Assembly (NCBI GenBank): GCA_016187225.1
Contig: JACPKC010000010.1
Coordinates: 67,541 to 131,540, forward strand
Direction: 5' to 3'
Source of the DNA: Candidatus Berkelbacteria bacterium
Lineage (GTDB): Bacteria; Patescibacteriota; UBA1384; JACPKC01
DNA length: 64,000 nt
Shown here: piece after piece, positions 2,733-43,644 of the stretch
Position numbering within the stretch: position 1 is the first letter of the stretch
How the letters are laid out: each line of letters starts with the position of its first letter
The notes under the pieces: model-generated
Told to the model about the DNA's origin: nothing
Database searches by the model: none
Seen by the model: only the letters and a program-made list of their open reading frames with translations
Translations under genes and position numbers: made by a program

Positions 2733-4109
2733 ATGTTTCCCGATAGATTGCGACAGAGTCGAATCGGTATTTTAGGTTTTGGCGTGAATAACCGCGAATT
2801 GGCTCGTTGGTTAGTTCGTCATGGCGTTTCTAAATTAACAGTTTATGACGAAAATCCGGCCGTTACAGATGCACTTAAACGCCTTGGTCTGACTTCGATT
2901 CGAGTAGTTGCTGGCCCCGGCGCTTTCAAAAAAGTCGAAGCTGACGTTGCCTTTCGTTCACCTGGCATTCCACGCCATCGCCCGGAGTTTCAAGCGGCGC
3001 TTAAACGCGGCGTTGAAATCAGCTCGCAAACCGACCTTTTTCTAGAGTTTTGCCCGGCTCAAGTGATCGGTGTCACAGGAACAAAGGGCAAGGGGACAAC
3101 AAGCTCTCTTATAGCGCACTTGCTTGCCCAGGAGAAAAAATCGGGCGCCCTTCACTTGGCAGGAAATATCGGTCAAGATCCTTTTGAATTTTTAGATGCG
3201 CTGACAGCTCAAGATCGAGTCGTGTTAGAGCTTTCCAGCTTTCAATTAATCGATTTAAAGCATAGTCCAAGCGTTGCCGTGGTTTTGGCGGTATCGTCGG
3301 ATCATCTGGATCACCATTCAACACGTGAAGAGTATGTTGGCGCGAAGCAGAATATTGTTAAATACCAAAAATCGGACGACCTCGTGGTACTAAATTTAGA
3401 TAACGCAACCGCGCTCGCGTTCGGCGCCGCAACGCGCGCGCGCGCTTATTACTACTCGATCCGCAAAAGCGTCGATGTCGGCGCCTTCTATTCGAAAGAG
3501 ACAATTTATTGGCGTCAGCTTGGTCAGGAAATTCCGCAAGTTGTGGCGCACAGTGAAGATGTGTCTCTTATTGGAGAACATAATCGTCTAAACGTAGTCG
3601 CGGCGCTTACAACAGTGTTGGCTCTTGGTTACTCTCAAGATAAAATCGCGAGCGCCTTGCGTTCCTTTCCAGGTTTGTCGCATCGTCTCGAACTTGTTGC
3701 CGAGGATCAAGGCGTACGTTGGTACAACGATTCTTACGCCACCATTCCTGAAGCGACCATTGTCGCGCTCAATAGTTTTCAAGCGCCGATCCATCTCATC
3801 GTCGGCGGTTCGAATAAAGGCGCCGAGTGGCATGAATTGGGTGAGGCAATCGCGCATAGCCAAGTTAAGCAACTTTTAAGCATCGGCGAGACCGGGCCAA
3901 AGATCGCTGATGCGGCCCTGGAGGCTGGCTACGACAAAGCCCGGATTTTTGATGCCATAACCCTTGAGGCGGCTTTGCGACAAGCGCGGTCTCAAGCAAA
4001 ATTTGGTGATGTCGTTCTGCTTTCGCCAGCTTCGGCGTCGTTTGACCAATTTAAGAATGCCAGTCAGCGCGGTGAGATTTTTAAATCCTTGGTCAGAGGT
4101 CAAATATGA
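2733..4109 (+). CDS. murD: UDP-N-acetylmuramoylalanine--D-glutamate ligase
   Basis: GVTGTKGKGTTSSL P-loop and 458 aa Mur ligase architecture. Position mraY-murD-ftsW. Confidence 0.9.
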   Translation: MFPDRLRQSRIGILGFGVNNRELARWLVRHGVSKLTVYDENPAVTDALKRLGLTSIRVVAGPGAFKKVEADVAFRSPGIPRHRPEFQAALKRGVEISSQTDLFLEFCPAQVIGVTGTKGKGTTSSLIAHLLAQEKKSGALHLAGNIGQDPFEFLDALTAQDRVVLELSSFQLIDLKHSPSVAVVLAVSSDHLDHHSTREEYVGAKQNIVKYQKSDDLVVLNLDNATALAFGAATRARAYYYSIRKSVDVGAFYSKETIYWRQLGQEIPQVVAHSEDVSLIGEHNRLNVVAALTTVLALGYSQDKIASALRSFPGLSHRLELVAEDQGVRWYNDSYATIPEATIVALNSFQAPIHLIVGGSNKGAEWHELGEAIAHSQVKQLLSIGETGPKIADAALEAGYDKARIFDAITLEAALRQARSQAKFGDVVLLSPASASFDQFKNASQRGEIFKSLVRGQI

Positions 4110-5242
4110 GCTTGTCGCGTTTCCGTGGTTCGAATCGCGACAAGGTTGATTCTTGGTTGCTTTTGAGCGTGCTCATGCTCGTCGGCGTCGGTTTGATCAT
4201 GATTTCATCAGCTTCAGTCGTGCTTTCATCAGAATACTTCGGCTCGAATTATGCCTATTCAAGCAAACAACTCCTACATTTTGGAATTGGTCTAGTCGCT
4301 CTGATTGTCGGTGTACTGGTTGACTATCGTCTATGGCAACGTTTAGCGCCGGCTCTTCTTGGCGTCATAATTCTGTTATTGCTTGCCACCCATATTCCTG
4401 GGTTGGCGCAAACTGCTCAAGGCGCCCAGCGCTGGATCGAACTTGGGCCGATCCAATTCCAGCCTTCGGAACTTGTCAAGATCTTTGCAATTCTTTACTT
4501 TGCCGCTTGGCTCGCGGCAAAAGGCAGTCATTTATCGAGTTTAACGCGAGGCCTTGTGCCATTTATCACCGTCCTCGGGGTGATTACTTTGCTTATTTTC
4601 GCTCAACCCGATGCTGGGACCGCGATGGTGATTCTATTTACGGTAACGACGATGTATTTTATTGCCGGTGCGCCTTGGATGCATTTGTTCTACGCAGGAA
4701 TTTTAGGCGGTAGTTTGTTTGGGCTCTTGATTCTTTCGGCGCCATATCGGCTTCAGCGGTTTTTGGTGTTTTTGAATCCCTCTGAAGAAACTCTCGGCGC
4801 CGCTTATCACATCAACCAGGCTCTCCTTGCGATCGGCGCCGGCGGCATGTTTGGCGTGGGTTTCGGCCAGAGTAAGCAGAAATTTCTCTACTTACCCGAA
4901 CCGCACACTGATTCAATTTTTGCAATTACGATTGAAGAACTTGGTTTTTTGCGGGCAATGTTAATCGTTGCTTTGCTTATTTTCGTAATGTTGCGGGGTT
5001 ATCAAATCGCCCGGGTGGTTCAGGATCCTTTTGGTCGTTACGTTGCCGTAGGGATAACAAGCTTGATTGCCATTCAGACATTTATCAATATCGGAGCCAT
5101 GTTAGGTCTAATGCCGCTGACGGGTGTCACCTTGCCATTTATCAGCTATGGCGGTTCCTCGTTAATCTCCTTGCTTTTTGGAGTTGGGATTCTACTTAAT
5201 ATCTCTCGACAAGCAGTTTTGATCCCGAAAGGAATGCATTAG
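4106..5242 (+). CDS. ftsW: SEDS family cell-division protein FtsW
   Basis: About 10 TM segments. Conserved QPSE, PEPHTDSIFA and LPFISYGGSS motifs. Lies between murD and murG. Confidence 0.85.
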   Translation: MSLSRFRGSNRDKVDSWLLLSVLMLVGVGLIMISSASVVLSSEYFGSNYAYSSKQLLHFGIGLVALIVGVLVDYRLWQRLAPALLGVIILLLLATHIPGLAQTAQGAQRWIELGPIQFQPSELVKIFAILYFAAWLAAKGSHLSSLTRGLVPFITVLGVITLLIFAQPDAGTAMVILFTVTTMYFIAGAPWMHLFYAGILGGSLFGLLILSAPYRLQRFLVFLNPSEETLGAAYHINQALLAIGAGGMFGVGFGQSKQKFLYLPEPHTDSIFAITIEELGFLRAMLIVALLIFVMLRGYQIARVVQDPFGRYVAVGITSLIAIQTFINIGAMLGLMPLTGVTLPFISYGGSSLISLLFGVGILLNISRQAVLIPKGMH

Positions 5243-5266
5243 ATGTGTTCCTCAATAACCTTTATG
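5237..5266. repeat. Copy A of the CAT...ATG junction element (R orientation): cattagatgtgttcctcaataacctttatg
   Basis: Read directly. The first 15 nt are identical to the reverse complement of copy B. It contains the ftsW TAG stop. Confidence 0.9.
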
Positions 5267-5404
5267 TCTAAATCGTCTCGAATTTGGCTAAACCAAACGC
5301 TTGCCTCGGTCAGTGTAACTCTCGTTACGTCTCTCTCGGCTTTCATTCGTTTCGCTCAAATTCAAACCAATTTCGAGCATGAAATTATTGGGGAACACAT
5401 CTAA
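5264..5404 (+). CDS. Possible 46-aa small ORF (MSKSSRIWLNQTLASVSVTLVTSLSAFIRFAQIQTNFEHEIIGEHI) between ftsW and murG
   Basis: Hand-translated with no internal stop. Starts on the terminal ATG of element copy A. Its TAA overlaps the murG ATG (TAATG). Has a hydrophobic core. No SD and no recognised homology. Confidence 0.2.
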   Translation: MSKSSRIWLNQTLASVSVTLVTSLSAFIRFAQIQTNFEHEIIGEHI

Positions 5405-5406
5405 TG
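5378..5406. repeat. Copy B of the CAT...ATG junction element (F orientation): catgaaattattggggaacacatctaatg
   Basis: Read directly. The terminal ATG is the murG start codon. Confidence 0.9.
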
Positions 5407-13132: not shown

Positions 13133-13140
13133 CATTGCAT

Positions 13141-13169
13141 CATAAAATTATTGGGGAACACATCGAATG
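13141..13169. repeat. Copy C of the CAT...ATG junction element (F orientation): cataaaattattggggaacacatcgaatg
   Basis: Read directly. Fills the sodA-radA spacer. The terminal ATG is the radA start codon. Confidence 0.9.
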
Positions 13170-27323: not shown

Positions 27324-27394
27324 TTATACACTCTACGAACGTTAAATGATTAGAGAGTGTCTAGATACTCATTTAACGTTCGTAGAGTGTATAA
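27324..27394. promoter_or_regulatory. Perfect 26-bp inverted repeat (ttatacactctacgaacgttaaatga / tcatttaacgttcgtagagtgtataa) with 19-nt spacer, in the divergent promoter region
   Basis: Arms 27324-27349 and 27369-27394 checked base by base. The outer ends read TATAAT (plus strand) and TATAAA (minus strand), which are -10-like. Confidence 0.85.
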
Positions 27395-27454
27395 TTGACA
27401 GAAGTGGAGTATTCTGATATATTGCTAATGTACGAAGTGTTCTATGGAGGGAAA

Positions 27455-27961
27455 ATGGAAAAGAAGGATAAACAAAAAGACTTTCAACGTCTTTTCGATG
27501 AAATCGAGTTGCAAATTTTGTATGCCGAAACTCCAATTCAACTTTCTTCAGCGCTTGCAAAGATTACAAAAAACAATCGCTTAATCCAGCGAAATTTACA
27601 TCGTCTATATGATATCGCAAGCCCGGCACGGATTCTAGGGTTAGTCTTACGCGGTTACGAAATTCCTGATGCTCTAACGCGTCTAGAATCAAATCGTTCT
27701 TTGCTCGATCTAAATAGAACCCTAGAGACTCTGTCGAGAACAGCGCTTAAGGAGCAAATTTGGCTCATGCTGGCGCAACAACGTGAAGTTCTGCTTGCTC
27801 AAATAGAACAAGATTTAGAGACACTTGTGCTTAGGTCGTCTGATCAGCGAGCGATTGCAAGTAGAAAACAAATTTTACTTGCAACCTACGAGCTAATCCA
27901 GGAAAATACAAAAATTGCAGTTGAAAAGGTTTTTGGGCGCGCTTTGTCGGTGGAGGGGTGA
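27455..27961 (+). CDS. Hypothetical helical/coiled-coil protein (168 aa)
   Basis: GGAGGG SD lies 5 nt before ATG 27455. The longer TTG 27395 start would begin inside the inverted repeat. No recognised motifs. Confidence 0.5.
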   Translation: MEKKDKQKDFQRLFDEIELQILYAETPIQLSSALAKITKNNRLIQRNLHRLYDIASPARILGLVLRGYEIPDALTRLESNRSLLDLNRTLETLSRTALKEQIWLMLAQQREVLLAQIEQDLETLVLRSSDQRAIASRKQILLATYELIQENTKIAVEKVFGRALSVEG

Positions 27962-28080
27962 TGATAACCGTTATTGAGGAATTTGAAGAACTGATTGACC
28001 ATGGTCACGAGCATTTTGCGTGGATAGAACGCTTTATTGCGATCTATCTTTTTCATTTTGTGATCAATGTTCTAGCCTAA
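27961..28080 (+). CDS. Possible 39-aa ORF coupled to the upstream gene (MITVIEEFEELIDHGHEHFAWIERFIAIYLFHFVINVLA)
   Basis: TGATG stop/start overlap with the upstream gene. No homology recognised. Confidence 0.2.
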   Translation: MITVIEEFEELIDHGHEHFAWIERFIAIYLFHFVINVLA

Positions 28081-28369
28081 GGGGCTATCCCGAACAAGAC
28101 AGTTTTTCTTCGTTTCAGGTAACCGGCTGAAAACTATTATTCTTCGACTCTCCGTTTTACGGCATTTTTTGAATGTCTCAAACAAGAGCCAGAAGTATAA
28201 ACCCGTCAGTGCGGGCAGATTTTGTTATCGCGAGTGAACCGTAGCGATCCTGGTAGATTGTCGCGGTTGCAACCTCGTAATTTTCAGGATTGCTTCGTCG
28301 TCCTTGGCTCCTCGCAATGACGACAATGAGAAAGCCCTGATAAATAGGGAAACAGGGGATTGAAGGTGG

Positions 28370-28390
28370 CGTGGATAACTGTGGATAACT
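28370..28390. promoter_or_regulatory. Tandem 10-mer GTGGATAACT x2 containing one perfect (TGTGGATAA) and one 8/9 DnaA-box-like site
   Basis: Read directly. TGTGGATAA is the complement of the TTATCCACA DnaA-box consensus. Box spacing is 10 bp. Confidence 0.4.
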
Positions 28391-28893
28391 TTCACAATGG
28401 GGGAGTGAAAAGGGGATGCCGCGCCTAAACTGTTTAGGCGATTATATGGTGCATGAAAAAGTTTATAAGAGGGGAGTAAAGATTATTTAATGCTAGGGAA
28501 GTGCAAATTTTTTTTATTGTGTGTAATTTTTTATCCTACAAACTCTCCCCCGCTTTCAGCTTGTCGTCGTAAGTCATCCAATTTTTGATAGGCGCATGTT
28601 GCGTACGCTAAAAAACTCATTGATATTTTAGAAATAAAATACTACTCCCCTGCTCCAAATTTTTGCATCATTTGAGATCGTTAGGAAATTTATTTTCTGC
28701 ACCTCGAAAAGAGCGCCAGCGACGCTTTTGCAGAGAAGTCCTCGACTATATAAATAATTCTCGATGCGCTTCGCTTACTCGAACAAGAATACTTTTTAAC
28801 CATCAAAAACTTTCGACACGCCCGGACAAGAACCCAAGGCCAGTCTTGAGCAAAACATTTCTTGCTAATGGGCGGGAGACTTAAGACAGAGAG

Positions 28894-43492: not shown

Positions 43493-43644
43493 ACACAGTT
43501 GATATCCGCGTATCATTACGAGGAGCCAAGGGCGACGGAGTAATCTGGTAAAGATTACCGCATAGTCGAAAAGTCTCGACAAATTTGAGCAGAAACATGT
43601 ACACTCGGCGGAGTTTTGTAATCTTTCCAAGGAGGTAAGTTGTT

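Follow-up and report, generated by a model that had tools for sequence, protein, structure and literature searches.

A recurrent motif at gene junctions of a Candidatus Berkelbacteria genome as the probable end of a palindromic, MITE-like element

A short motif that recurs at gene junctions of a Candidatus Berkelbacteria genome is probably the terminal inverted repeat of an imperfect palindrome of about 170 nt, which would represent a non-autonomous, MITE-like or RPE-like mobile family of Patescibacteria (RPE, Rickettsia palindromic element). We favour this reading because the size of the element, its terminal inverted repeats, its AT-richness, its hairpin transcript, the occurrence of truncated as well as full copies and the empty sites in relatives are all those of MITEs. 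The family seems to be a previously undescribed one of a familiar kind, and its placement at gene junctions, together with an open reading frame (ORF) that runs through it and is coupled to both neighbouring genes, could be its one unusual feature. The first-pass annotation of this DNA had already proposed an undescribed repeat family at gene junctions, with a junction-located mobile or REP-like element among its options, and that proposal has been borne out. Its self-contained 29-nt unit in two orientations has to be replaced, however: the motif is the terminal arm of a hairpin of about 170 nt, the two orientations are the two arms of that hairpin, and the copies that stand alone are arm-only remnants.

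The window, that is, the whole stretch of 64,000 nt analysed here, has a housekeeping gene content, including the dcw cluster, recJ, sod, radA, a PBP1-type penicillin-binding protein gene, type IV pilus genes, ileS, ribosomal protein genes, dprA, topA, a release-factor gene, ybaB and pth. Its RadA shows 100% identity to that of a Candidatus Berkelbacteria MAG in GenBank (contig of 320,597 nt). About 94% of the window is coding and 4-nt gene overlaps are frequent. All four copies of the motif (c1 to c4, Table 1) are located in the non-coding 6% or so, and they fill the spacers 3' of the ftsW, sod and ybaB stop codons, as had been claimed. The four positions reported earlier were confirmed, with a frequency far above chance: an 18-mer core with no more than 3 mismatches has 3 matches in the window against 0.05 expected, a number reached in 0 of 100 shuffles, and the deleted core variant of c4 has one exact match in the window. 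Extending the search to some 20 kb of flank beyond the window brought up no additional copy. All four copies are thus real, but c1 and c2 are not independent, being the two arms of one 170-nt palindrome. The GGGGA reported 9 nt 5' of the ATG is indeed present, in c2 and c3.

Table 1. Coordinates of the palindromic element, its arms and related features in the window
Feature	Position	Strand	Remarks
Full-length palindromic element, copy 1	5237-5406	.	Between ftsW stop and murG start
c1, left terminal arm of copy 1	5237-5266	+	CATTAGATGTGTTCCTCAATAACCTTTATG; overlaps ftsW stop TAG (5240-5242)
c2, right terminal arm of copy 1	5378-5406	-	Reverse complement CATTAGATGTGTTCCCCAATAATTTCATG; end ...CACATC-TA-ATG, ATG being the murG start
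Left TA beside GATGTG... terminus	5240-5241	.	With 5402-5403, candidate 2-bp target-site duplication
Right TA beside ...CACATC terminus	5402-5403	.	Read from sequence
ORF through whole element	5243-5404	+	53 codons plus stop; begins right after ftsW TAG; TAA overlaps murG ATG (TAATG)
41-nt stretch inferred to be identical in second copy	5340-5380	.	From k = 31 break limits and A26T/E40K
c3, arm-only remnant (right arm)	13141-13169	-	Reverse complement CATTCGATGTGTTCCCCAATAATTTTATG; sod/radA spacer; end ...CACATC-GA-ATG, ATG being the radA start
c4, arm-only remnant (left arm)	63645-63669	+	TAGATGTGTTCC-CAATAATTTTATG; 1-nt deletion; outer CAT replaced by TGC; ybaB/pth spacer; inner ATG coincides with pth start

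The full-length copy at the ftsW/murG junction (copy 1) is a 170-nt imperfect palindrome with 50-nt inverted arms that are 74% complementary, and the pairing runs on to the apex. Its terminal inverted repeats, in which 5237-5266 pairs with 5378-5406, have the terminus GATGTGTTCC..., and as RNA it folds with a minimum free energy of -60.5 kcal/mol (z = -5.9). The element is well below the 500-bp limit for MITEs and has no transposase gene, its sole ORF being that of 53 codons. The two arms of copy 1 can be aligned over the full 85 nt, while c3 and c4 share just the outer 25-29 nt.

Copy 1 is flanked by TA on both sides, in the palindromic context CATTA...TAATG, and longer direct repeats are absent. 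The TA target duplication of Correia elements is similar to this candidate duplication, which, as read from the sequence, is indistinguishable from the final bases of the inverted repeat itself. A TA flank is also seen at c4, at the right end of the homologue in another host described below (locus L150), and in the back-translated sequences of the related proteins P0241 and P0243; a TC flank is seen at c3 and at the left end of L150. Of the nine known flanks, 2 are TC and 1 is TG. The empty site inferred by removal of the element, ...ATGCAT-TA-ATGAAG (CATTAATG), would have an ftsW TAA stop overlapping the murG ATG. Models with a 3-bp (ATG) or a 9-bp target duplication were rejected, since the empty site reconstructed from them is an in-frame ftsW-murG fusion. 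Beside the element, the left flanks of both left arms (window 5231-5241 and 63634-63646) read GG(A/G)ATG, and the upstream proteins end in ...GM(H) before the stop. The sequence GGAATGCAT-TA beside c1 resembles a decayed right arm (GGAACACATCTA), possibly the trace of serial insertion at a regenerated TAATG.

The solo arms c3 and c4 may be the remains of unstable palindromes that lost their interior by deletion between short direct repeats (CAT...CAT or ATG...ATG), and the CATTG at 13133-13137, directly 3' of the sod TAA, could be what survives of the left tip of c3. These solo units have no structure of their own, as they fold no better than shuffled sequences (z = -0.14 for c3 and -0.45 for c4). 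In scans of the three loci, ftsW/murG, sod/radA and ybaB/pth, no sigma-70-like promoter was found, and a single weak terminator-like hairpin was found, at c4.

Further members of the family were searched for with the ORF of copy 1, by phmmer against 1.84 billion representative proteins and then by a profile search. The search recovered HYW32_03125, a GenBank hypothetical protein that corresponds to the inner 46 codons of the ORF (5264-5404), HYW32_01570 (P0241), and P0243, P0244 and P0245/P0247 from other assemblies. HYW32_01570 marks a second full copy in the same MAG, on a different contig of 161 kb, with 83% amino-acid identity to the ORF of copy 1. The host genome thus has several copies at unrelated sites with truncated ones included, as in MITEs, but their low number, only two full copies and two remnants so far, counts against the mobile reading.

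Were the junctions once free of the element? The comparison of orthologous junctions, suggested in the first-pass annotation, was made with relatives of the host, and no spacer was found at either of two junctions: ftsW and murG overlap as ATGA in the relative with locus L127, and ybaB and pth overlap as TGATG in that with locus L148. Before insertion the two junctions were thus spacer-free stop/start overlaps, and because the relatives' junctions overlap without a spacer, the elements at ftsW/murG and ybaB/pth are regarded as insertions. Note that these empty sites come from distant relatives, the closest relatives of the host having a RadA identity of only about 62%, and no presence/absence polymorphism was observed directly. 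No copy of the element was detected by nhmmer in the relatives' loci L127, L128, L148 and L149. The sod/radA interval is non-syntenic, with three or four variable genes there in relatives. At the ybaB/pth junction of L149 (GCA_016198415.1), the same junction as that of c4, there is a different insertion, a PF05635 gene ('23S rRNA intervening-sequence protein') flanked by inverted GGTGAAAGGTGAAACGTGAAAGGTGAAAC repeats of about 29 nt (GGTGAAAG-type) at 3571-3599 and 3968-3997.

A 169-nt homologue of the element is present in another host, at the junction of murC and the next gene (L150 322-490; L151 1910-2078). L150 and L151 represent one locus recovered in two assemblies. They show 5 differences over 508 nt, of which three fall in the 30-nt right arm (L150 460, 471 and 479), and the L151 arm pairs better with the left arm. 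The ORF of this homologue opens on the ATGA at the murC stop and closes with TAATG on the next start. The window copy and the L150/L151 element share 72% identity over the whole element (centre 75%, arms 63-67%), against only 36% between the MurC C-termini of their hosts, which are 12 GC points apart, that of L150/L151 being the GC-richer. In both hosts the GC content of the element is 7-11 points below that of its surroundings.

The homologue also allows a different explanation to be weighed, that the element is primarily a structured RNA, either a cis-acting hairpin in the polycistronic mRNA (serving RNase III or transcript stability, or gating the translation of murG) or a minus-strand antisense small RNA, with the repeated arms as a by-product or as targets of base-pairing. 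The hairpin is retained in the distant host, where five pairs, confined to the terminal helix, have both partners changed, a co-variation of the arms that also speaks for the mobile reading, and several of the single changes are G-U-compatible. Furthermore, c1 and c4 show complementarity to the initiation regions at c2 and c3. Conservation is higher in the centre of the element than in its arms, the reverse of usual MITEs, which counts against the mobile reading and fits a structured RNA better. The folding energies of minus- and plus-strand RNA also count against the mobile reading, being -65.5 vs -58.1 kcal/mol in the window, -75.2 vs -45.5 in L150 and -84.7 vs -45.4 in L151; in L150/L151 the arm mismatches lean to G-U on the minus strand (10 vs 3-4). 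Such a bias is unpredicted by a model of double-stranded terminal inverted repeats; it comes, however, from two effectively independent sequences (p about 0.05 to 0.09). On the other hand, a structured RNA would hardly be expected in at least two diverged copies with truncated remnants within one genome, at a different junction in the other host, and nowhere at the orthologous junctions of the closest relatives. Around the full element no sigma-70-like promoter or terminator was found on either strand. In the Rfam search of the window only tRNAs reach the gathering score, and the element region has two chance-level matches at E <= 10. In view of the well-conserved centre and the strand bias, we consider a role as structured RNA or as single-stranded DNA possible but rather unlikely.

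It is very doubtful that the 29-nt CAT...ATG unit is itself functional, as a cassette working in both directions, or a site for protein binding, that would enter junctions and supply start codons in either orientation. The CAT...ATG form holds in part, with the inner ATG in four of four copies and the outer CAT in three, c4 being without it. The inner ATG is the start of a gene only at pth, and loss of the sequence from one ATG to the other would account for this coincidence equally well. For c2 and c3, the ATG of the gene lies outside the conserved core, 2 nt past the arm. Right arms adjoin (T/G)A-ATG in c2, c3 and L150/L151, as does every Berkelbacteria right end, but the two foreign members P0243 and P0244 do not, an ATG being absent after the right arm in their back-translated sequences; this makes it likelier that the ATG belongs to the host than to the element. 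In addition, the radA N-terminus MAK is conserved in relatives, the N-terminus of pth reads MK[IL][IV]VGLGNP, and pth, radA and murG all start where they do in element-free relatives. Because these starts occupy ancestral positions, the start-codon donation put forward earlier is not required. The suggestion of a regulator site or initiation cassette fares no better, as the orthologous junctions in relatives are without the element and no RNA-level function is common to both orientations; the conservation at orthologous positions that marks an operator or a conserved cis-regulatory site was not found. Moreover, c1 and c2 belong to a single 170-nt palindrome as its arms, and other hosts conserve the interior of that palindrome, and the solo units are without structure or promoter of their own. 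LexA, dif, parS and attC-like readings were rejected by eye, the unit having neither dyad symmetry nor matching core motifs.

Another possibility is that the ORF is a real gene for a small protein of 46-53 aa, perhaps a membrane protein, and that the symmetry of the DNA is incidental. The frame is open in P0241, P0243, P0245 and P0247 with a recognisable conserved sequence, SV.VT.VT..S..RFA, the ORF is coupled to both neighbours, and GenBank annotates a hypothetical protein. However, the members were found via a protein database, so that ascertainment favours open copies, and the frame is open by composition alone in 7% of shuffles. The ORF has no Pfam match, and a 1-nt indel shifts its 5' frame between the hosts. 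The differences between the ORF and L150 are distributed as 17/11/11 over the three codon positions, with 24 non-synonymous vs 4 synonymous codon changes. Judged by these comparisons, the element is conserved at the nucleic-acid and not the protein level, with no amino-acid selection on the ORF, and we regard a genuine small-protein gene as highly improbable.

Equally improbable are site-specific recombinase sites bracketing invertible segments, of 111 nt between c1 and c2 and of 50.5 kb between c3 and c4: both pairs are inverted in orientation, but the c1-c2 interior is itself palindromic and has been kept as one unit in other hosts, the neighbourhood contains no recombinase gene, a dyad-symmetric core is missing from the unit, and a break in the assemblies here is fully explained by the second copy. 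That is, the contigs of both Logan assemblies end at 5369 and restart at 5351. The Logan assemblies use k = 31. Compared with the ORF of copy 1, P0241 carries A26T (first base 5339) and E40K (first base 5381), with no difference between these two positions, so the breaks are attributed to the 41-mer (5340-5380) shared with the HYW32_01570 copy. The Logan contigs break in the tRNA cluster too, and therefore breaks in these assemblies mark shared sequence. An inversion or heterogeneity as the cause of the break was abandoned in favour of the exact 41-mer.

How, then, could a mobile element, which we take to be the best explanation, have come to occupy these junctions? A transposase supplied in trans would insert the element at a TA that adjoins a start codon, the empty site being CAT-TA-ATG, and the TA would be duplicated. 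The first base of the element, G, would complete a TAG stop for the upstream gene, and the downstream gene would retain its own ATG. In a genome with a coding fraction of about 94%, only junction insertions might survive. The transcript would form a long hairpin burying the murG start region, and ribosomes translating the through-ORF, linked by TAG-ATG on the left and TAATG on the right, could unfold the hairpin and pass on to murG, so that the host could tolerate the insertion.

A more specific form of this mechanism, to which we give only tentative weight, is a "translationally transparent" selfish element specialised for stop/start overlaps, which targets the TA of a TAATG-type junction. 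Such an element would give a TAG to the upstream gene and regenerate TAATG downstream; its length plus the TA comes to 162 nt, or 54 codons, so that the frame would be kept, the hairpin melted and the coupling across the insertion retained. In a variant, selection would act on the minus strand, in the form of an antisense RNA or of a transposition intermediate made of single-stranded DNA.

Among known systems, the proposed mobile element is similar to bacterial MITEs (such as Correia/CREE of Neisseria, ERIC, QMITE and Chunjie) in its length of about 170 nt, its 29-30-nt terminal inverted repeats, an AT content above that of its host and a transcript that folds into a long hairpin, and in that it is multi-copy, with truncated copies, and intergenic immediately 5' of genes. 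It has the general features of MITEs, of which truncated copies are typical in bacteria (PMC10969869). It differs from them in that no parent IS or transposase was found in the approximately 84 kb read (window and flanks), the interior is more conserved than the terminal repeats, the whole element is palindromic, and its known copies occupy precisely what were once stop/start overlaps, with an ORF running across them that is coupled on either side. In sequence, it was not found to resemble any named repeat family.

The Rickettsia palindromic elements, of about 150 bp, occur in a reduced genome, where their frame is kept open with a recognisable 'conserved peptide', and they are not ordinary genes (PMC10969869). 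The present element is likewise palindromic, with an open frame in a reduced genome, and a transposase is not known for RPEs either. However, the likeness is by description only, the host phylum is different, and RPEs are mostly in-frame fusions inside genes, while here the element is intergenic with a separate, coupled ORF: the ORF is split from ftsW by the TAG and ends before murG, so that no fusion protein results. REP/REPIN sequences with RAYT are also extragenic and occur as singlets and as inverted doublets forming a long hairpin, but the 29-nt unit here has no stem-loop of its own, and no Y1 transposase or RAYT gene is present in the 84 kb read. The outside end of IS10 (IS4 family), CTGATGAATCCCCTAATGATTTT, whose presence was verified in plasmid R100, agrees with the unit TAGATGTGTTCCCCAATAATTTT (window 5240-5262) at 16/21 positions, counted by eye. 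Membership in IS10 was rejected, with no 9-bp target duplication at the full copy (flanks GGAATGCAT and ATGAAGCGC), and the likeness is kept as a lead only.

The wider motif search proposed in the first-pass annotation yielded no further copies in pattern scans of genome, metagenome and viral collections; like the search for a transposase, which found none in the 84 kb read, this counts against the mobile reading. The 16-nt core gave chance matches only in the genome collection, plus many in a NYWEHI-coding stretch; a 21-nt degenerate pattern in the metagenome collection, two scans of viral collections and a plasmid BLAST gave chance matches or nothing. The 16-mer core GATGTGTTCCCAATAA is the antisense of NYWEHI codons in a conserved (W)QRNYWEHIIRNE stretch, which accounts for about 1/3 of 120 matches and occurs in many phyla. 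This stretch presumably belongs to IS200/Y1-type (RAYT-like) transposase genes. A link to IS200-like genes was judged to be chance, as the similarity stops at the 16-mer. In the literature, we found no paper describing MITE-like repeats in Patescibacteria.

CPR/Patescibacteria genomes are tiny and dense, and are thought to be poor in mobile DNA. A palindromic repeat on former stop/start overlaps, 72% identical between hosts whose housekeeping proteins are about 36% identical, shows where selfish DNA can persist in a genome that is about 94% coding. In practice, the element breaks short-read assemblies at predictable points, yields spurious 'hypothetical protein' annotations (HYW32_03125 and HYW32_01570), and can pass wrongly for a regulatory motif or a start-codon cassette. 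If the idea of a through-ORF with coupling is true, it would provide an example of an element adapted to operon translation.

Other repeats are also present in the window. Between a tRNA cluster (Trp, Thr, Tyr, Thr; minus strand) and an ORF at 27395-27961 lies a near-perfect hairpin, 27324-27352 / 27366-27394, whose 29-nt arms are 97% complementary and enclose a 13-nt loop. The ORF is followed by a gap of 932 nt without genes (27962-28893), by far the longest in the window, which has no Rfam match at the gathering score and may hold an unrecognised RNA or a decayed gene. A second repeat family consists of a 40-nt inverted repeat, 28281-28320 / 43513-43552, 83% complementary and located in two different intergenic regions 15 kb apart (reverse complement of arm 1, TCATTGCGAGGAGCCAAGGACGACGAAGCAATCC...). 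Finally, three 64-nt repeats, 75% mutually identical and with start spacings of 192 and 165 nt, occupy 61479-61899 inside the ORF 61400-62230, whose protein has no Pfam family on record in the contig table.
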